A stretch of 64,000 nucleotides of DNA from Phyllosticta citribraziliensis (lineage: Eukaryota): positions 496,001 through 560,000 of the forward strand of contig NW_027117342.1 in assembly GCF_038025025.1 (NCBI RefSeq), read 5' to 3'. The stretch's first letter is position 1; each line of letters opens with the position of its first letter. The position numbers and the translations under genes were made by a program. Positions 27,993 to 42,141 of the stretch are shown piece by piece. The notes beneath the pieces are model-generated. The model saw only the letters and a program-made list of their open reading frames with translations. It made no database searches and had not been told where the DNA came from.

Positions 27993-28400
27993 TCAGCGGC
28001 CCGTACATTCCTCCGACTTCTCAAGGCTTCTGATCAAGTCCCGTTGCGTCTCGATCAGGTCATCCTGCAGCTTGATAGTATCGTCCTTTTCCTTGACCAG
28101 GTTCATCGCAGCCTGAAAGCGCTGAAGGAGCTTGTTGATGACTTCTGTCTTCTTCTGGGCCCGCTCCTCGTATCTTGCCATCGTTGCCTCGGTCTTCTTG
28201 TCGGACGCATGCAGTTGCTTCTGGGAAATCTTGAGCAGGTGCATTTCCCTGTCCCTCTCGTCGCCAAGACGCGCATTCTCCTTCGACAGCTGCGCCATGC
28301 GCTCTGCAAGCTTCATGTTTTGCTCTGAGAGGGTCTCGCCCTTGTCTGAGAGTGTTGGCAATGCGTTAAGTCTAGAGCGTTTGGTACTTACCACAGACAT
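27993..28400 (-). CDS. Small coiled-coil hypothetical protein (~135 aa); 5' structure uncertain
   Basis: Heptad-rich open frame LSEQNMKLAERMAQLSKENARL...LLQRFQAAMNLVKEKDDTIKLQDDLIETQRDLIRSLE. Confidence 0.55.
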   Translation of the reverse strand: MSVVSTKRSRLNALPTLSDKGETLSEQNMKLAERMAQLSKENARLGDERDREMHLLKISQKQLHASDKKTEATMARYEERAQKKTEVINKLLQRFQAAMNLVKEKDDTIKLQDDLIETQRDLIRSLEKSEECTGR

Positions 28401-28823
28401 TGTTCGGCCGGTGCGGCGACATGACAGGAGGGCGGAATCGAGGCTCTGCTGTCCATTTAGTGAGATTTTTGTCTGTCTGAAAACGCGTTCTCGCTTACCC
28501 CGCGAGCGGCTTGGGAGATGCCTGAGCCGCAATTTCGTGCGGTGAGATGTTGCAGTGCTGACGCAGCTGTGTAGTTGTGTAGGGGTGTCGAGAGTAAGCC
28601 TGTGGCCAGGAATACCCGAATGGCCACTGCACAAGCCGTTGACTCACAGCAGCATCGTACTTCACACCGGCAATAGAACCAGTCCAGGCTCTTGGATCCT
28701 GACATCATCACGTCTTTCAATGTAGGCTCAAAGCAGCAATTTTCGTTCCAATTTTGTATCTGCTCAAAGCCCTCCCCAACCTAATGAGCTGCGACCCCGG
28801 CCCACTTCTTCCCATAACTCGAC

Positions 28824-30121
28824 CTAGAAACGCCTGAAGAGTGCCTGAAAATTCGACCGATGTTCGACCAGTTGGGCCAATTCCTCCCTGGAGAATCTCA
28901 ACGGCCATTGGGTATTCCAGTCACCAGTAACGCTCATGCCGAGAGTCGTACTTCCATCCCCCCAGTCAAAGATGACGCGCGTCCCAAGTTTAGTACGGTA
29001 TACTCCACCGACCCATCGAACGCGAAAGAAGACTCCAGATCCATCTGGGCATCTCATGGGCACCGAGAAGCCTCCGTCTGGGAACGCGTACAAATCGGTA
29101 CCTCTCTTGACATTGATTGTCAGGTAGGTCGGAGTGGTGTTGTCAGCGACGCACGTCTGGATTGATTGCGCGTTGACATTGGAGCCTAAACCAAACGTTG
29201 GAATATTCACCGGACCGAAGCTCTGATCGAAAAACTTTTGCCACGTTGGGGCATTCTATTCCACATTGGCCCACCAGTGATCGGTATGGAAGTATGGCTG
29301 TAAGACGCAAAACACATCAAGGCGATTGGTCAGCGTGCCGTAAGTGCCCCGAAATCGACCGTTCTGCGTTAGGGGAATCCACCGGTGCCTGGCTTTCAGT
29401 TGGCTCCTTTTGCCGCGGAAATAATCATCGCAGAGTATGACAGCGGGGTGAGTCGGACTGAGATCCCAGGCTGGGCCTCTCTGATTCGCAAGCGCCAGTA
29501 GGTCGTCCGGACTGGCGATGAATAAAAGCTGCAGCATAGCTGCCAGCAATATGTCCTTGTGGTCAGAGAGAGATATGGGCGGGACTGTTTCTTGTTAGAG
29601 TCTGCTGTTCTTCTCGTGAGGCCACGTACATGTCTCGCTTGAAAACCCTGCTCTTGCGCGACGTTCGGCCCAAAGAGACTTCATCTGAGGATCGAGCGGG
29701 AACAGTTGTGGATTCTTCAGAGTGTATCCCTCATCATGGACCAAAGCTTCAAAAATGTCTGAATCACAATCGTCCCAGAACTTCCGAATCCAAGCCTCCC
29801 AATTGGCTCTATCCACACGCTTGTGCTCCACAGGCGCGCCTATGCAGCCGCCCTTGCCATAATCGGGAAGGAAATTCTCATCAAAAGGAATGACTGCTCT
29901 GAAGTCCTTGGCACCGTTGGCGATGAACCGGCGCCTCTCATGGTCCTTAGAGACCTCCCCGACCTGATTGTGAGGCGATTTCTCTTCAGTGGACTCCAGT
30001 TCCTGGAGAAGCCTCTGGTTCTCTTCGCGCAGAGTTACGCACTCGTCTAGAAGTGTCAGGAAGACGTGCAGACGAGAGGGAGGCGCTACTTACTGCAGGC
30101 GTTTTCTTGAGTGGACGACAT
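28824..30121 (-). pseudogene. Cluster family copy A: coiled-coil N-terminus plus USP-like domain; one in-frame TAG
   Basis: Exons 30121-30094, 30046-29630 and 29584-28824 join in phase: MSSTQENACNECVTLREENQRLL...LWAERRARAGF..F|PPI..MLQLLFIASP..WQKFFDQSFGP..TPTYLTI..VRWVGGVY..IFDWGD..LFRRF. Premature TAG at 29258-29256. Confidence 0.8.
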
Positions 30122-30479: not shown

Positions 30480-31753
30480 CAGCAGTTGAGCTCCGACAGC
30501 TCTTTCGGTCGGCTTGGGAGAAGAGAAGCCTTGAGGCCAAGGTGGAGCTCCTTGAGGCCGAAGTGGAATCGCTAGATGTTGAGCTGCAGGAGGCAAAGAA
30601 CGTGTAAGTGAGTGCGCTTTTTACAGGGACTTGAGATGATTTCACCGATATAGACTGATGTAATCCAAGCGAAGCCAGCTAGTACAGATGACAGGCCAAT
30701 TGGAAAGCCTTTGAACCTCGACTATGTCTTCTTAAGAGCCTGGATGAAAAGGGTCACGGGGACTGCTCATCGCAAGCACCCGCCCCCGGATGTCTTCGAT
30801 CGAGATTCACTTGTGGCGGGTCTCTGGAATGCCCGTCGTAGTCGAGGAGGATTTTCGTGGGATTTGCATAAGCAGTGTAAGTGCCTCTCGCGAAAGAAAG
30901 TCATGTTCTGATCTGACGAGTGAAAGTTCCCCCTATCCAAAACTCTGGCTGTAGCCGCCGAATTATTGTCGGCCTTTTGCTCCAACTGCTCTTCATTGCC
31001 AGTCCGACCGATCTTCTGAGACACGAAAGTCTGGTCGAACCAGCCTCGGAGCCCGGTCCCGAACACCCTGCCGCAAAGCTCTATGTAGCCTGCGATGTTA
31101 CTCGTGATATGGACTCCGGCCATCCTTTGTTTGTGGTATGGAAGAACATCGCACAAAGTCAGTTGTTCCAAGGAGTTTTTGGAACCCTGCAAAACCGCGA
31201 AGGTGGCTTCGAATTGGTTTCTTCAGAAACGGTCGAGATCTGGAGGGCAGATATCTGCTTGAGCGCGTATTTAGACACTACAGACTTTGTTGATTTGGAC
31301 TCTTCTATCCGCTGTCAGCAGTTTCAGACCTGAAAAGATTTCTTTGTATGGAGCTTTGGCCCTCAAGATATACAGCTGTCATGCAGAAGTTCAGTTTTGT
31401 CTCAGCAAATGTTCGTGTATGGACGAATGCTGCCGATGTACCTCACGGTTCTGGGCTGGGCAGGGTCCCAGATGTTCGACCACGAGCTGCATAAGTTTCC
31501 GCAAGACGAAACTATGGTGACACTTCGGTGTCAGGATGGCTCTATCGCGTCTGTTTGCGTCCGCTGGGTCGCCGGAGTCTACAAAATTTGACAAGGACGC
31601 CGCGTCGTCTTCGATTGGGCCGACGGTAGTGACGCCGTGGGGATGAGCATAAGTGGTGACTGGGACAAGGATCCGCCAATCAGGCATTCGAGGGAGGAGT
31701 TGGAAAAAGACACAACATTGGAGGGCATTCTCATGCTTTTCAGGCGCATCTGA
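30480..31753 (+). pseudogene. Cluster family copy B; two in-frame TGA stops, start uncertain
   Basis: A coiled-coil exon (~30480-30604) precedes LWNARRSRGGF. After intron 30877-30926 the frame reads F|PPIQN..LLQLLFIASP..T*KDFFVWSFGP (TGA at the conserved Trp, 31331-33)..LPMYLTV..VRWVAGVYKI*QG (31589-91)..VFDWAD..LMLFRRI*. Confidence 0.8.
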
Positions 31754-33626: not shown

Positions 33627-34858
33627 ATGTCGCCAACCATCGACATGAATCCCGAGTACAATGGACTCTTCCTTGCTCCCCTCGCTCAAGGTCCCTCGGT
33701 TCCAGACCTCCACCATGTCTCATAGGCATCGCTTCCTCAAGCTGCCGTTGATGCTCAAGACGAGACGGCCGAGCCGCACATTTCGCTCTTTCACACCGGA
33801 TACAAATACTTGCTAGAGAGCCTGTATCCTCCAGTAGGCGGCGCGAAATACATGTTCATGCGAGAAGGCCGAAACATTCTGGCGGGCATGGGCGAGGAAA
33901 TGGTCTTCAGCATCATGGATGGTACACTCCCGCGAGTGCGCTTCATCGACAGCAAGCCTCAAGCTAAGCGCTTCATTGAGAAAGCGGAAGAGTAATGGAA
34001 GCAGGAGAGCTTAGAACATTCCTACCAGCCTGTTCTTTACGGACAGTACCTTGTGGACTGCCAAGGACGGCCACCCACGGAATCTGAGCTATCCAAGATT
34101 GCTGCGCGTGTGGAGGTTTACATCTCTTTCGATCCAGAAGACATCACGTTCGCAAAGAAGATTGACACCGCTGTGGCTCCACTGGAGGAAGAGGTAAACT
34201 GGAAACGTGGCCATCGCCGATACGTGGAAACAATGGAAGACAAGACAACGATTATCCGATTCATTCGCGCTGTACGCGAAAGTCTGCCCAGCGTGCTCAG
34301 TAACTCTGAGCGCCCACGCAGTCTCGCACAATTTGCCGCTACCAATAATGCGCACCTGTGCTTCAACAACCACCAGCAGCACAAGGGCGGTAGCAAGCTG
34401 ATGTATCTTGTTGAGGCAATCTGCAAGGTCCATTATCCGACATACAAAATCGAGCGGTTCGTCGTGTTCCGGATCTGGGACCAGCAGCAAGTCTGGGTGG
34501 GCGACATCCTGCTCAACAAGATTGGATGGGGCTATGCGTCTTATGGTTTCGGCTTCGATGTTCGTTCGAGGTTTCCTTGTGCCGCAGATACAATCGGAGA
34601 CTTGTCACTTCGGCACTACTGGTGCTGGGAGAAGCAGCCAATCAAGTTCACTCCGCTCTACGGTACGACCAAGAAAAACTCCCCGGCATGAAGCAAACTG
34701 ACTTTTGGATAGCAAACTACGAAAAACAGATTCAGCTGCTGGCTGAATACGTCCGTATAGCCGAAGGTGACTTGACTGTCTTGGAGCCATACTTGAAGGA
34801 GACTTGGGCGTTGCAGGAAGCGAGGGCGGCCAGGGAAGCGACGGAATCTCTGCCATAA
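33627..34858 (+). pseudogene. Disrupted gene of an uncharacterised fungal protein
   Basis: ORFs ending at 33725, 33995 and 34691 are all in one frame, separated only by TAG (33723-25) and TAA (33993-95). The sequence is globular and protein-like (QPVLYGQYLVDCQGRPPT; HRRY; HQQHKGGSKLMYLVEAIC; FVVFRIW; GYASYGFGF). A probable frameshift leads into the frame ending at 34858. Confidence 0.65.
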
Positions 34859-35191: not shown

Positions 35192-36182
35192 CTAGACGCG
35201 CCTGAAAATCATGAAAAACTCCGTCATCGGCCCGCTCATCTCCTGCTCCACCTCTTCCCTTGAACGTCTCGTTGGCGGGTCTGTGGACCAGTTTCCTGAG
35301 TTGCTGCAACCAAGTGAACCTTCCTGATCGCCCCAATCGAACACCAGCCTCGAATCGACCGACGGAGTTGAGTAAATGCCTCCAACCCATCGCACTCGCG
35401 TACTGGCCAAAAGGTCGTCTTCTCGGCGAAATGTCAGGAGGAAGTCGTTCTGTGGAAATTTGTCCAAGTTCTGGTCTGATTCGACATGACAAGAGACGGT
35501 CAGATACGGCGGTAGGTTTCCATGTTCGAAAAAGGGCTGAATCGACTGCATTGATTCGATCCACGGCAGTTTGAGGTCGTATGGGCCCAAGCAACCGTCG
35601 AAAACATCCTGCCAGCAGTCGTCGAAGGAATCTCTCGAGTGGATATCGCACAAGTTGAGTTGGGAATCATCAGGGAGTTTCCTTGGCTTGACATCGAAGT
35701 CCTCGTTGTGGATCAACAAGCCATTCCTGCCACGGAAAAGTCTTCCTTTCGCGACTGCGGGCCAGCACATGTGGAGTGAAACGAATGCCGTGTATTCACA
35801 GCGTTCTTCGTAAAAGAAATCCGGAAGCTCGAGTGTGTGATGTTTCTCGTCGAAAGTCCAGGTTCCTTCCTTGAAAGGGCCGGCTAATTCGTACAAAGCC
35901 TCTGGCGATGCAACGAACAACGATTGAAGCGCGTAAGCAAAGCCTTTGTCCATTTTGTCGACATCGATTGGTGGGACTGTTGACGGTTAGCTTATTCTAC
36001 AATTCACGGTGAAGACACGTACAAGGCTCATCAAATCCTCCACTAGTGACTCTTGCAGCCCACTGGCTCTCCGTGTGCTCGTCTGGTGAGATCAGAGGTG
36101 GATGATCACGCTCGTTCTCCAGGCGGTTCTCTGAGACACGTCTACGCCATTCAGTCGCATATTTGGCCAATATTTCCTCCAT
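35192..36182 (-). CDS. Cluster family copy C (open from 36182; may have further upstream exons)
   Basis: Exon 36182-36023 (..SQWAARVTSGGFDEP), phase-1 intron 36022-35977, then F|PPIDVD..ALQSLFVASP..WQDVFDGCLGP..LPPYLTV..VRWVGGIY..VFDWGD..MIFRRV*. Confidence 0.82.
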
Positions 36183-37440
36183 TTTAAGACGAAGTTAGAG
36201 ATTTTAGAGGGCCTACACTGCTTGCGGATCAAAGCCGAGGGACGATGCTGGATTTAAGTAGGAAGCAGTGGTTTGCGCTCACCAACGTCTGCTCGCAGCA
36301 CAAGCAACTCCATCAAGCACTACAAAGCAAACATTCAACCTTGTAAAGCCGGGAAACTCTGAACTTGAAAAGCAAAAGACTGAAATCGGATCACTACGAG
36401 CCCATACCGTAGTCAAGTTTGTGGTAGATCGGCCTCAGACTGTGGTGTAGCTAGCGGAAGAGTTTGCCAGAAATTGCTGCATAGAAATCCCTCGCAGCCG
36501 ACAAACATTGAGCCTGGCAGTAGTTGCCCGGATTGTCTCCCTGTTTCGCCGCCCCCGGCGGGAAGATTCTGAGATGCTTCCTTCATGGCTGCACCTAGAA
36601 CCTTCGCAGCTTATGTATTGCTCAGCTTGACCTTCCCATTACGCAGCTCGGATAAATGTACAGACTGCAATACGAGAGGTGCGCTATCTTCAGGAAGGGT
36701 GGATGCAACATGAACATTGCCTTCCGTTTGTGAGAGCCGCGCTCTTCGCTCGCTTAGCTCCATCCCGCCCATCCTGCCGGCAGCTCTCTCCTCACGGAAC
36801 AGCACCCATATCCCAATGATTGCATCCATTACAGCCTCAACCTGAAATAAAATGTCAAAACGGTGTATCGAAAGCTCTCTAACTCTTGGCCATCAACGCA
36901 AGGAACGAAAGACGCGCCTCCTTGGCCGCCCGAGAGCAACGCCGCGCTCGACCCGCGAAGAGACTCTCAGGCTTCAGTAGCTGTCAACACACCTGTCAAA
37001 TTTTCGACCGACCTTCTTGCGACTGCAGTAGCATGTCCACAGCAAATACTAAGATAGCTGGCAAAATCCACGCATCCGAGGGCTGCAGTCTCCTGCGCAA
37101 GGGCCGTCGCATCCGCGTCTCCACCGCTGATCCCTGCAAACTGCCTTTTGGCGTTAGATTCCCCCGTCGCTTAGCCCAAGCCAGCAGTTCCAAGCCCCTT
37201 GCTTCCGAACCCAAAGTTGACTGCCATCGTGACAACCGGTCGTGGATAAGAAGATGCGCGGTCTTCAAACGTAGAATTTTTGGAGACTGATGCATCGTCG
37301 CTCTCCAGGCGCGTGCAGGTTGTTTACTGCCTTTGTGGCGACGGATTTGGCCGAGAGTGTCGGTGGTATGGACAAAGACCTGCAGGCCGGCAATTTTGCG
37401 GACGGTGCGAAGTGCTGTGGGCTTTTAGACTGGGGTTTGA

Positions 37441-37510
37441 GCGGCTTTGAACTTTTGCGGCTTTAAACTTTTGCGGCTTTAAACTTTTGCGGCTTTAAAC
37501 TTTTGCGGCT
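37441..37510. repeat. 16-bp tandem repeat (GCGGCTTTAAACTTTT) x ~4.4
   Basis: Read directly; the first unit has one substitution. Confidence 0.92.
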
Positions 37511-37519
37511 CTGGTATAC

Positions 37520-38035
37520 CTTTCGAGGATGTCGTGAATGCGGTTCAGTCATTCTGCGTCAAGGTATGAGGTTGTCTGGCACCTGGGCATGGGCTCTGGC
37601 TATTCGAGAACTTTCACAATGAACTTGTTCAGAGATGGGGCAGGTCACGGAAAAGCATGGCGAGTGATCAATTGGAGCTACCAAAGATTTGAGTTTTGAG
37701 ACGAGCTACTCGTGGTCCTGCTCTTAACAGAGCTCCTCCTTGACATCCTCCTTGAGTTATTCCTTGCCTTGGAGCTTTTTTTCGAGCTCGTCGATCTCAG
37801 CCAGGAGTTTGGCTTGGATCTTGAGGTAAAATACGATCTGCTGATTGATGAGAGCCTTGCGCTCCTCGAGCGCGGCCTGGAGTCTTTTGATCTGGTACAG
37901 CAAAGCCAGCCTGGTCTTGGTCAGTTTGTGTCTTTTGGTGAAATAAAGAGGGTGAATCACTCACATCGCAGGATTATCATTGAGGTTAGAGGCAAGAAAC
38001 TCCTGCTCCTGGCGTGAGTGCATGTTGCACATGAT
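37520..38035 (-). pseudogene. Decayed coiled-coil reading frame
   Basis: After ORF 37757-37960 (..LLAEIDELEKKLQGKE) the charged frame continues through TAA, TAA and TAG (*LKEDVKEELC*EQDHE*LVSKLK). A short upstream exon ends in GTGAGT. Confidence 0.5.
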
Positions 38036-38538
38036 GGGTAGGTAGAGTAGGTAGTTGTGAGAGTTGGTTCGAGGAGATGCTGTCCCTGCCCAAAATTTCA
38101 GTCAGTCCAGTTATCATGGGCTGCCACAGTGGACGAACGTACGAAGGATGGAAGCGCCGGGGTTGAAGAGGAGAGAGTCATGGCGGCGTCGAACGAGGCT
38201 TTATACGGCGTTGTAGGCGCTGTGGACGTCGGAGGCCACGGTTTATCCGGTGGCCGCATGCGCTTGTTGTTGTCAATGAGGAAGGTACGGCATGCCGCCC
38301 ACGTCCGGGTGAATAAACAGTGACTCTTTGCTCTCCCCTGCGCCTGCGCATTTCAACCTGAACTTCTCCACCATCCACTCAACCAACTTCTCCAGAGTAC
38401 GCATGAATGCTCCATGTACAAAAGTCTATACTGATGACTTTGGAATAGTCTGCTCCAGCAAGTCTCGCCGCCTCTTATATCGCCAAGCTGCTGCCCGGAT
38501 TGCTTCTTCAAACACGTACGACACTTCGATTGTCTGAC

Positions 38539-38991
38539 ATGGAAGTTTCTGCTGATGGGTTTAGAATGTCTTCGTCCGACTTTGCCAATCAGTCTGGTCT
38601 TGGCGCTAGCTCTAGTTTGGGAAACCACGGCCGGCGACTTGTCATCAGCACCACAATCATCACCATCGTCACAACAATGGACTTGGATACGGGTCGCACT
38701 CAGGCGGCGAGTACCACCACCACGACCGAAGAGCGCAAAGTCACCTTTGACGACGGTTCTGGAAGTAGCGACGGCAGAAACAAGGACAACAGCGCCACCA
38801 CGGGCCTCGATGGCCAGGAGCCCCTCGTCGAAGACGGCGGCGCCGACGCCAACAACGACGGCAACGGCAAGGTTGAGACTACCAGTGCGAAAAAGCGCAA
38901 GCGAGACCGCTCTAGGAACAGTGCACGCAAGAAGGCCAAGACGTCGAGGAAAGAGATGCGCGACCTCAAGGGCGCCTGGGACTGGATGTAA
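38539..38991 (+). CDS. Low-complexity acidic/basic ORF with NLS-like KKRKR..RKKAK; possibly an upstream exon of copy D
   Basis: The open frame has coding-like GC3 and a possible GT donor at ~38988. The link to copy D is not resolved. Confidence 0.4.
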   Translation: MEVSADGFRMSSSDFANQSGLGASSSLGNHGRRLVISTTIITIVTTMDLDTGRTQAASTTTTTEERKVTFDDGSGSSDGRNKDNSATTGLDGQEPLVEDGGADANNDGNGKVETTSAKKRKRDRSRNSARKKAKTSRKEMRDLKGAWDWM

Positions 38992-39534
38992 TTCCTGACA
39001 TCTGGCCGTTTCTTCCTTTTTCTCCGCGGCAAATTGTGCAAATACAAATCTGTTCTTCCGCTGAGCTCCTATCACTCAATCTGCCCACTTGTTTAATGGT
39101 TTCGAGGTTGTTGATGACAAGCACTCGTCGATTCGAAATTCGTGACTCCGGCGGGAAATGAGCACTTTTCTTTGAGGTTTTCCACTGCCTCTGACTGCAT
39201 CTGCTATACAGCTTGATACCCCCAAGGTGTCTTGCTGTGTGCATGTCTTCTTTAATTTGCTGATAGTGCATTTTTTCACAAAGCTGAATGCTCTCACGTT
39301 CTCTAGTCCCAACCCGTTCTCTCCGGGTTCCCAGTATTTTCCAAATAGGTGAATGCTCCCAATCCGACGCCGCCACTCTCGCGCCAATGTTGTTGTTCTC
39401 GCCGCCGGCAACGCCGCTGCAGCCTATGGATCGAACTTTCTCTCCTGCTCTAGACGCGACACCATCCTTCGGCTCAATCCTCATTTGCCTCTGGGTCTTT
39501 CTACAACCGGTGGTTCGCCAAACTCCATCCGACC

Positions 39535-40517
39535 ATGGAGCACGCCATGGGGGAGCAAAAGTGGAAGGTCTTTGTCTGGAGCATTCGATTGTCTTCCATC
39601 GCCCGCGTTATCGACCCCGAAGCCGAAAGTCAGCTAGACTTCAACCTGCGGGTCCGCAATGGTGGACTCCTAAGTTGTGAGCGAGCATCTTGAAGCGCTT
39701 TGTCTTCGTAGCTAACAAGACAGTCCCCAAAATTGAAACAACGACGGAAATCCAAGCCGAACTTGAGGCAGCTCTCCAGCTTCTTTACGTCGTCGCCCCT
39801 AACGTGGCTGTGTGGTTCCGCGGTGCTGATTTCAACAATCCCTGGAAGCTCGATGCGGACCACCCGGCCGACAAACTGCTCGCCGATGAGCCTCTCATCG
39901 GCAACAACTACATGATGCAGGCATGGAAGGCGGTGACCCACAACTTTCGCTTCGCTGGCAAGTTCGGTGTCCTTGTCAATCACCAGCACACAAACCAAAA
40001 TCCCGCGTCCAGCCTTGTGGCCAACCCGGATACCATCGGTCTTTGGGAGACCTCCGGTACCTCCAGGGCGCTCTTTTGGCAAGAGTTCTTCGACAGCTGC
40101 TTTGGTCCGGTCAACGTCACTCTCCCGTCCAATCCGACGGTCGTCTCAGTCCAGTCCTACGTCACCGGCGGCGAATACCTCCCGCCGTTCCTCACCATCG
40201 ATGCCTTTCGCGGCCGCGTACCCTTGCAGCAGCTGTTCCCGCACGAGATATACCCCATCGTCATGCGCACCATGGACGACAACCAGTTGATCAAGACGTA
40301 CGTCAAGTGGGTCGGCGGCGTGTACACGATGACACTCGACGAGCGCCCGAGGCTCGTCACGATTTTCGACTGGGCCAACGGCAGCGGTGACCTGGGAGCT
40401 AGCATCTCTGGCCACTGGAACATGGCTCTGCCCACCAAGTGGAAGCGCAATGAGTTCGCCCGATTCTGCGCTGCTCACGGAGCGCGTCCGCTGCTTATGG
40501 TGTTCAGGCGCGTCTAG
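39535..40517 (+). CDS. Cluster family copy D (intact; true start may be upstream)
   Basis: An exon ends ..LDFNLRVRNGGLLS, followed by phase-1 intron 39677-39723, then F|PKI..ALQLLYVVAP..WKLDADHPA..WQEFFDSCFGP..LPPFLTI..VKWVGGVY..IFDWAN..LMVFRRV*. GC3 is strong. Confidence 0.85.
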
Positions 40518-41080
40518 CGCGGGAGTTGACACTTGGTTGGATGGACTTGGTAGAGCACAGCAGAAGTGATGAGATATCGGGAGCATTCAATACAACATGC
40601 ACACTTGGAAGTCGCGTTGAGGCACAGAAAGCATCCATCGCGGATGCCTAGAGCTTTTGACAAGGCATTGAGAGCGTTCATCATGGCATGGAATCATTTG
40701 ACTTGGATTGAATACCCAACTCCATGAGGTAGACCTGCTGTTACAGTAGCAATCACCTCATAACCATCCTTTGCACAGAAAACCGCGTCCGCCTTTTGGC
40801 GAACCGAAGGTTTTTTTTAACACCTGCAAGTCCGAACGTTTTTCTTGCATTCCCTCAAAGCCCTGCTCCGTTGTCTTCTTCCTCGACTAACCAGCAACTT
40901 TGTAGCCTGCATGATTCATACCAACGAGTGACCAAAGCCGGCATGTTCGACTTCCTCAAGTCCCATCACTACGCCGCGGGTATTTGACCCGTTGTACTCC
41001 AATTCTGCTTTGTCTGAAAGAAGTCGATTCTGTGTGCGAATATCGTGGGGGATGCTCGAAGGTCAGAGATTTTCGAGGCC

Positions 41081-42141
41081 TCAGCCGTGCGCAGAGTGGT
41101 TCAGGCCTTCTGTTGGGCCTGTCTCAACGCGCCTGAAAATCATCAGGTCGGCCGCGATCGCAACACTGCGGATCAGACTGTAGAACAACGGCCTGCTGTA
41201 TCTCTGAGGAGGATGATTGGCCCAGTCTGCGTTGAAGCTCTTGCCCACACTTCGGTCACTGTCGCCCCAATCGAAGATCACACGAGGAGATCCTCCGCCG
41301 ATTCGATAGATGCCGCCAACCCAGCGCATGCGGGTCACCGCCAGAGAGCCGTCTTCGGTGAGGAAACGAACAAGGTAGTCTTTTTCCGGGAAAAGTTGGC
41401 AACGTAACGTTTGACCGACCAAATGGGGCATTCCAATCGTGAAGTATGCCGGGAGCTGGGTGGGCTTGACGAATGGCTGCGAAGCCGTAATGCAGGCGTT
41501 TCCTGTGATGGACTGGAGCTCTGGGGCCATGAGAAGTTCGAAAAATTGGTCCCAGCTAGTCCAGTTTCTGTGGATGCAGGCAGAGCTCCAAAGCTGTGCA
41601 TCTTCGCTGTCGACTGCGATCTTGGACTCGTTGTTTCGGAGGTGGATCATGACACCAAAGTGGGCGCGAAAAAGCTTGCTCGTCGCAACAGCATCCCAGG
41701 GCACAAGCTGTGGAATTGGTGGTTGATGGTTGTCGACGGCGCGCTGAAATCTGACTGCCGGATGGTCCTCATCAAGGTCCCAGGCACTTCCGTACGGCTT
41801 CGCCAACGAGAGGCATTCTTCTGGAGATGCAATATAAAGCAGTTGAAGTGCAGCGGCGAGGTGAGACTTGCAGTTGATAGGAGGGACTATGAAATGTTAG
41901 ATCATGCGCATAACATGACGATCAAGCACTTACACTGCTCAGACTTGAATCCATCTTGACCATTCCTGGCGGCCCAGAGGTCTTGCGCGTACTTTTGAGG
42001 CTCAACAGGCTTTGCGGTGATGATTCCCTGCTGGCGCTCATGCAGAATCATTTCTAGCCATGAGAGCACGTTCTTACAACCAGGGTTGCCATGATCTTTT
42101 TTGTCGCTCATATTGTCGCCGTGAGAGGGTAGATTGGCCAT
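41081..42141 (-). CDS. Cluster family copy E (open; start uncertain; 14-aa C-terminal extension)
   Basis: ..DLWAARNGQDGFKSEQ, phase-1 intron 41933-41887, then F|PPINCKSHLAAALQLLYIASP..WDLDEDHPA..WDQFFE..LPAYFTI..MRWVGGIY..IFDWGD..LMIFRRVETG.. Confidence 0.82.

Follow-up and report, generated by a model that had tools for sequence, protein, structure and literature searches.

We identified five neighbouring genes of the citrus-leaf fungus Phyllosticta citribraziliensis that form an unnamed protein family, so far seen only in the genus Phyllosticta, whose members are predicted to be catalytically dead ubiquitin-specific proteases (pseudo-USPs). The genes, which we call A to E, lie in a 64,000-nucleotide stretch of contig NW_027117342.1 (assembly GCF_038025025.1, positions 496,001 to 560,000 of the forward strand). 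We refer to this whole stretch as the window and give all coordinates within it. Copies C, D and E are intact two-exon genes, and copies A and B carry in-frame stops. The existence of a five-copy family is confirmed, and its reading as a pseudo-USP family is supported by structure prediction. With a probability of about three in four, we consider that the intact genes encode stand-alone, compact pseudo-deubiquitinases that most likely serve as non-catalytic binding modules.

Using the three intact open reading frames (ORFs) as tblastn queries, we found five loci in the window and none further: A at 28824-29594 (-), B at 30917-31753 (+), C at 35192-35986 (-), D at 39681-40517 (+) and E at 41081-41896 (-). 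Within the window the five loci matched each other at 28-35% identity, with E-values from 8e-20 to 2e-34. When a hidden Markov model (HMM) of the family was run against all 1552 stop-to-stop ORFs of the window, only fragments of loci A-E matched at E <= 1e-4. The translation of copy E at 41081-41896 (-) was 100% identical to P0001, a 337-aa "uncharacterized protein" of P. citribraziliensis, and copy E shared 85% identity with P0002, a protein of P. citrichinensis. A previous sequence-only reading of this DNA had placed the family at 35192-41886. That range does hold the second exons of C, D and E, and it leaves out their 5' exons as well as copies A and B altogether; its ends are C's stop codon and the point where exon 2 of E starts, and it includes about 3.3 kb of unrelated DNA.

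The sequence-only reading had proposed a USP-like domain from a set of motifs in a fixed order, and the family alignment bore out both the motifs and their order in all five copies. The series begins with (A/L)LQ(L/S)L(F/Y)xxxP and LPxY(L/F)T(I/V), the latter being TPTYLTI in A, and continues with FP, then (R/K)WV(G/A)G(I/V)Y, then a C-terminal (M/L)xFRR(V/F/I). Five further motifs emerged from the alignment: LFxGxFG, WxxFFxxxxGP, SxQxFV, FDWGD and GxSxxGxW. Among 14 full-length members, 14 columns were invariant (F142, G147, W181, P191, Q206, P215, P236, W258, G261, Y263, G284, R301, R321 and V323 in P0001 numbering), and about 30 additional columns were at least 75% conserved in proteins that are only about 30% identical. 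The invariant and nearly invariant columns fell mostly in the beta-rich part of the predicted fold and were densest in its C-terminal half, with the C-terminal palm strands (RWVGGxY, FDWGD, GxSxxGxW and FRRV) conserved best of all. By motif register, these strands would correspond to the His-box, the Asp-box and the last strand that line the ubiquitin-tail cleft of USPs.

The identity of the family as USPs rests on predicted structure, beyond the reach of sequence detection with Pfam or PDB profiles. AlphaFold2 was run without templates on a 22-row family alignment, several rows of which are fragments, for copy E (as P0001) and for the domain of copy D, which at 28% identity are the most divergent pair. 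The model of E had a mean predicted local distance difference test score (pLDDT) of 83.3 and a predicted template-modelling score (pTM) of 0.83, and the model of D had 88.2 and 0.87, with the five models of each run lying within about 5 pLDDT points. Both models consist of an N-terminal helical part, in which ALQLL forms the first long helix, followed by a beta-rich part that ends in the FRRV strand. When model E was searched against the PDB with Foldseek, at least 500 matches were returned, 268 of them at E <= 1e-3, and 44 of 44 rows among the matches listed were of the USP class. The top match was USP46 (5l8h_A; E 2.2e-8, template-modelling (TM) scores 0.46/0.49), followed by USP7, USP35, USP12, USP36, Ubp8 and Ubp6. 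Model D gave 366 PDB matches at E <= 1e-3, and again every row among the matches listed (43/43) was of the USP class; Ubp8 (E 2.1e-8) and the yeast Pan2 "pseudoubiquitin hydrolase" (E 2.8e-8) were followed by USP1, USP30, USP18, USP54 and USP7, and the best TM scores, 0.55/0.50, were obtained with USP46 (6jlq_A). The PDB rows among the matches listed, taken with the named rows that head the BFVD list, had a probability of 1.00, TM scores of 0.34-0.55 and about 250-350 aligned columns. In BFVD, a collection of viral models, model D had 29 matches at E <= 1e-3, headed by ubiquitin carboxyl-terminal hydrolases of giant viruses. The same search also gave fragments of coronavirus ORF1a/ORF1ab; the coronavirus papain-like protease has a USP-like fold. 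The sequence-only reading had named a non-papain-like fold as the outcome that would overturn it, and the predicted folds of E and D instead match USPs. We regard the assignment of the USP fold as highly probable on the basis of these models, and the family as very probably a descendant of the USPs.

The catalytic residues of this fold appear to be missing. Active USPs use a Cys-His-Asp/Asn triad (PMC3988567). The sequence-only reading had claimed that no copy has Cys at the catalytic position counted back from LQ, quoting KSHLAAALQ from E and DILLAAMLQ from A. Both strings are found in the sequence, and counting back seven residues from the Q of LQ leads to Ser in E, Lys in C, Ala in D and Ile in both A and B. 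The further claim that the His-box is absent also held, as no column of the family alignment resembles one; in none of the 18 alignment rows does His stand between GG and Y, by motif register the site of the catalytic His in USPs, and I, V, L, G or F is found there instead. Across the 14 full-length members, no column reached Cys in more than 7 of 14 or His in more than 8 of 14, and the top His column lies in the helical part. Ahead of the ALQLL helix, neither the length nor the sequence of the stretch is constant. FDW keeps its Asp in 13 of the 14 full-length members, and this residue may or may not mark the former third position of the triad. Since neither Cys nor His is conserved anywhere in the alignment, the loss of catalysis is supported independently of any alignment to a USP. 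Because the Cys nucleophile and the His general base would both be lost, these proteins would be unable to act as clan-CA cysteine proteases. Of the features that define C19 membership, the family thus has no Cys box, no His box and no matching sequence profile, and has the predicted fold. Taken together, the pseudo-USP proposal is supported by the predicted structures of E and D and by the absence of conserved Cys and His, and not by sequence searches.

Several observations weigh against this conclusion. With Pfam hmmscan, none of 10 pieces of the family gave a match at E <= 1, UCH/USP models matched none of the 22 alignment rows at E <= 10, and family profiles had no match among PDB sequences at E <= 10. 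The structural similarity is distant, with TM scores mostly below 0.5, root-mean-square deviations (rmsd) of 7-25 A and identities of 6-15% in Foldseek. The models of E and D share one shallow alignment of 22 rows, and the ESM Atlas single-sequence model of E was poor (pLDDT 0.31), giving no usable feature match and structural TM scores of at most 0.30. The former Cys, His and Asp sites were assigned by motif register, taken from the sequence-only reading and the C19 consensus, and not by a computed alignment or superposition; Foldseek gave no residue-level alignment. The nearly invariant Asp of FDW could be a surviving triad residue. Finally, two of the five copies are broken. No Pfam domain of any kind was found in the 22 alignment rows or in P0019, a long form of the protein, and we took the matches to PF18352 (E 0.0027) and PF14197 (E 4.2), in one member each, as chance.

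Most of these points could also be explained if the USP likeness were an artefact, with AlphaFold2 drifting on a shallow alignment to a common alpha/beta architecture and the true fold being unrelated. Such a drift would account for the low TM scores and large rmsd, for the missing C19 profile signal and for the poor ESM Atlas model, and both AlphaFold2 models come from one 22-row alignment, but it is hard to reconcile with pTM values of 0.83 and 0.87 in runs whose five models agree closely. It also fails to explain why all PDB rows among the matches listed are of the USP class and the top named BFVD rows are ubiquitin hydrolases, with a probability of 1.00. Further, the fold had been foretold by the sequence-only reading from the order of six sequence motifs, independently of the models. 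We therefore consider an artefact quite unlikely.

To define the breadth of the family, we scored the five-copy profile against a library of 1.84 billion proteins that represent about 15 billion public ones. Seventeen proteins matched at E <= 1e-3, and for 15 of these the E-value was 1e-30 or lower. One, the 703-aa repeat protein P0018, matched in five short stretches (E 8e-7) and was rejected as a spurious low-complexity match. The remaining matches are 193-403 aa long, and because all matches other than P0018 fall in this range, we conclude that the library holds no fused forms. The clusters for which a source is named (P0001, P0002, P0013, P0017 and P0019) all come from Phyllosticta, namely P. 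citribraziliensis, P. citrichinensis and P. capitalensis, the last with three clusters, and the restriction to this genus is based on these five. A word-index homology search was nearly blind to the family, although it supplied species names: E gave 2 matches, the alignment 3 and P0013 2. Two P. capitalensis proteins, P0019 (475 aa) and P0017 (403 aa), are longer models that carry about 145-165 additional residues at the N-terminus and no Pfam domain. P0017 diverges most of all members, with ALVLL in place of ALQLL and FDWGD missing.

Maximum-likelihood analysis placed each of B, C, D and E, with strong support, next to a protein that lies outside the window. Identity between copy and outside partner was 70-80% for B, 76% for C, 56% for D and 85% for E, whereas neighbours in the array share only about 30%. 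Because the outside partners are closer (56-85%) than the array neighbours, the copies appear to be old and retained. We conclude from these comparisons that the duplications predate the splits among the sampled species and that the intact copies have been kept since. Two other origins for the array were considered and rejected: we found no direct or inverted repeats flanking the copies, as a transposon origin would predict, and indices of repeat-induced point mutation (RIP) resembled those of the rest of the window.

The structures of the two broken copies were derived from the alignment, the HMM and a splice check. Copy A (28824..30121, (-)) has three exons, and its domain is interrupted midway by an in-frame TAG (29256-29258). 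Past this codon, 143 codons are still open and conserved, and the database model P0015 ends at the TAG. Copy B (30576..31753, (+)) also has three exons, with in-frame TGA codons at 31331-31333 and 31589-31591. The database model P0014 ends at the first of these, the sequence of B stays open and conserved after the stops, and the related protein P0007 has W where B has its first TGA. Introns were rejected as the cause of the stops in A and B, since the alignment crosses them without added length and the database models end there. Because the alignment passes straight through, we conclude from the sequence that the stops in A and B are nonsense codons. Separately, the N-terminus of copy A is extended by about 100 residues (29631-30121, (-)) with a heptad-like stretch, REENQRLLQELESTEEK, that was unseen in the other copies, and the adjoining ORF at 27993-28634 (-) is coiled-coil-like too and had no Pfam match.

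The broken copies raise the possibility that the family is functionless or dispensable, a set of decaying lineage-specific duplicates in which C, D and E have simply not yet been struck by nonsense mutations. In-frame stops in two of the five window copies, truncated database models of the relatives P0007, P0011 and P0016, and the tiny size of the family (17 matches among 1.84 billion representatives) would all be expected of such decay. Decay would not be expected to leave 14 invariant columns and about 30 others at least 75% conserved at an overall identity of about 30%, nor outside relatives at 56-85% against neighbours at about 30%, which indicates that the copies were kept since before the species split. 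In addition, C, D and E have kept their reading frames open and their canonical intron undamaged, and there is no RIP-like dinucleotide bias. On balance we consider decay very unlikely. Least likely of all is that the proteins are still hydrolases, acting on ubiquitin, a ubiquitin-like protein or another substrate through a non-canonical site made of the polar residues D275, S286, D248, Q206, Y263 and R301 (P0001 numbering): neither Cys nor His is conserved, the loop on which USPs carry their nucleophile is constant in neither length nor sequence, and no clan-CA enzyme is known to function without its Cys-His pair. Those polar residues are kept in 12-14 of 14 members, and a review cites claims of residual, non-canonical deubiquitinase activity for USP52 and USP39 (PMC10919355).

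With these alternatives weighed, we favour a model in which the intact genes encode non-catalytic pseudo-USPs. In each protein, a single domain of about 250-260 residues would follow an N-terminal extension that is about 50-150 residues long. This domain would retain the overall USP (peptidase C19) fold, with a helical thumb, a beta-sheet palm and fingers that are probably reduced, and would have lost the two residues needed for clan-CA activity. The family would have arisen in or before the genus Phyllosticta through repeated tandem duplication, followed by birth-and-death evolution, of which the window shows three genes still intact and two interrupted by nonsense codons. The intact proteins would then work without catalysis, as binding modules. 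The N-termini, judged by eye, have no signal-peptide-like hydrophobic stretch, and because of this the proteins are probably intracellular.

Two kinds of partner come into question for such modules. Within the non-catalytic pseudo-USP model, it is a reasonable possibility, short of even odds, that the fold now serves to hold a partner of another kind than ubiquitin, by analogy with Sad1 or Pan2. We more tentatively suggest that the ligand is ubiquitin or a ubiquitin-like protein, for which the family would act as a reader, decoy or shield. The sequence-only reading had suggested ubiquitin-binding decoys or scaffolds, and the decoy part of its proposal is pure inference. Caution is warranted in assuming ubiquitin binding, because in the best-studied stand-alone case, the inactive USP domain of Sad1, no binding of ubiquitin was seen in vitro (PMC3988567).

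A bolder version of this model is that the fast-diverging tandem array serves as a conflict module, whose decoys or sensors would bind ubiquitin, a ubiquitin-like tag or a foreign protein of the ubiquitin system (mycoviral, host or non-self) in the disabled cleft. An arms race would then drive the birth-and-death turnover, much as in allorecognition or immune gene clusters. We consider this unlikely; if it were true, no earlier pseudo-deubiquitinase family would have had a role of this kind in fungi.

The open frames of C, D and E each start right after a stop codon because an intron precedes each of them. One short phase-1 intron is common to all five copies and lies directly ahead of the FPP motif (FPK in D). 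In C, D and E it is canonical, 46-47 nt long, with the form GT...CTAAC...AG, and an intron at the same position is found in A (about 29585-29629) and in B (about 30877-30926).

Exon 1 of copy C (36023..36182, (-)) encodes MEEILAKY...WAARVTSGGFDEP and was found by the family HMM (E 9e-5) and a splice check. It is followed by an intron of 46 nt (35977..36022, (-); GTACGT...CTAAC...CAG, phase 1) directly before FPP, and by exon 2 (35192..35976, (-)), which carries the USP-like domain in full, starting at FPPIDV and ending at the C-terminal FRRV, and the stop codon, as judged by the open frame, the HMM (E 7e-102) and a splice check. The spliced protein has 314 aa. In copy D, exon 1 (39535..39676, (+)) encodes MEHAMGEQ...RVRNGGLLS; it was placed by a splice check, with a family HMM E-value of only 0.24, and by eye resembles the N-terminus of P0011. 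The 47-nt phase-1 intron (39677..39723, (+); GTGAGC...CTAAC...CAG) lies at the same position as in the other copies, and exon 2 (39724..40517, (+)) encodes the USP-like domain, on the evidence of the open frame, the family HMM, and AlphaFold2 with Foldseek, to give a spliced protein of 311 aa. Copy E has exon 1 at 41934..42141 (-), supported by a splice check and the match to P0001, an intron of 47 nt (41887..41933, (-); GTAAGT...CTAAC...TAG, phase 1), and exon 2 at 41081..41886 (-), which corresponds to P0001 residues 71-337 and encodes the USP-like domain with a 14-residue C-terminal tail past FRRV. Residue 70 of P0001 is the split codon at the splice junction, and the spliced product of 337 aa is identical to P0001. 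The 5' exons share a weakly conserved LWxxRxxxGGF segment, which is helical in the model of E (pLDDT about 80-90).

We also surveyed the surroundings of the array. From 27.2 to 45.6 kb there are 115 ORFs with a length of 75 aa or more; we scanned 59 of them against Pfam, and the other 56 either overlap the family copies or are overlapping alternatives. Among the ORFs scanned, the only one with a Pfam family was a bordering purine/cytosine permease, so that the array lies within a block of about 17 kb (27.4-45 kb) with no other Pfam-recognisable domain. The array is flanked by ordinary metabolic and transporter genes, with a flavin monooxygenase, a TauD-type dioxygenase, an APH-type kinase, an MFS transporter and a Zn-cluster transcription factor. 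The neighbouring genes scanned against Pfam gave no functional clue. Between B and C, a 212-aa ORF at 34053-34691 (+) had neither a Pfam match nor a convincing one in the PDB (bS6c at E 0.011, baeRF_family11 at E 0.14). Its language-model look-alikes were bacterial TIR/SEFIR clusters with scores of 0.78-0.80, below a meaningful level; that an immune-type domain might lie inside the array is given only as a lead. In the gap between C and D, at 37441-37520, there is a tandem repeat of about five units of the 16-nt sequence GCGGCTTTAAACTTTT. An ORF at 38449-38991 (+) is rich in Thr, Ser, Asp and Gly, ends in a basic stretch, KKRKRDRSRNSARKKAK, and matched no family; it overlaps long ORFs on the other strand and may not be a gene.

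We compared the family with known USP-fold proteins. The best structural matches are active USP domains (USP46, USP12, USP7, USP30, USP18 and USP1), and by motif register the conserved elements of the family follow the same order. Active USPs have a Cys box and a His box, whereas the Phyllosticta proteins have neither. The Phyllosticta domain is also smaller: it has about 250-260 residues, and the shortest of the matched chains have 281-343. By motif register, the BL2 loop between the His-box strands appears to be about 4 residues shorter. Among viral proteins, the giant-virus USP A0A5J6VHZ4 matched model D in BFVD (E 1.1e-8, TM 0.50/0.47), as did several ORF1a fragments. Unlike the Phyllosticta proteins, these giant-virus and coronavirus matches are annotated as hydrolases, and nothing suggests a viral origin for the family, as its genes have canonical fungal introns and no repeats flank the copies.

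Among inactive relatives, Pan2/USP52 is close in structure: Pan2 chains are among the top matches of model D (4xr7_G at E 2.8e-8, 6r9o_A and 4q8g_A). The Pan2 domain lies between WD40 and exonuclease domains in a protein of more than 1000 residues and is conserved across eukaryotes, whereas the Phyllosticta proteins are single-domain proteins of 311-337 aa. The Pan2 domain is described as an inactive UCH domain within a deadenylase (PMC4158885), and Sad1/USP39 and Pan2/USP52 are pseudo-USPs that act as scaffolds (PMC10919355, PMC3988567, PMC4158885). Like the Phyllosticta proteins, Sad1/USP39 has a USP fold whose catalytic triad is not intact, and Sad1 acts non-catalytically (PMC3988567). Unlike them, Sad1 keeps the His and the Asp of the triad (DHD), is recognisable as a USP by sequence, has an N-terminal ZnF-UBP domain, and is an essential protein that is present in a single copy and conserved from yeast to man. 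In the Phyllosticta proteins both Cys and His are missing and Pfam detects no domain; they occur in one genus and are tandemly duplicated. The architectures of the known pseudo-USPs (ZnF-UBP with USP, or WD40 with USP and exonuclease) were absent, as none of the members has a Pfam domain. On the grounds of this different architecture and of the missing sequence link to Sad1 or Pan2, we conclude from sequence comparison that the family is not orthologous to the known pseudo-USPs. Searches of full texts turned up no paper on the family, which Phyllosticta genome papers may nonetheless mention.

These findings give a fold and a testable hypothesis for proteins that are annotated as "uncharacterized" or "hypothetical" wherever sources name them, and they suggest that pseudoenzyme families can hide among lineage-specific orphans. 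The diverged paralogues also provide a natural set for asking what the USP scaffold does without catalysis. Pseudo-USP scaffolds such as Sad1 and Pan2 were known, and known pseudo-deubiquitinases are mainly single, deeply conserved subunits of large machines. What is new here is a pseudo-USP, as predicted from its models, that is stand-alone, cryptic at the level of sequence, and genus-restricted: the same fold as a small protein, tandemly expanded in one genus with citrus endophytes and pathogens.

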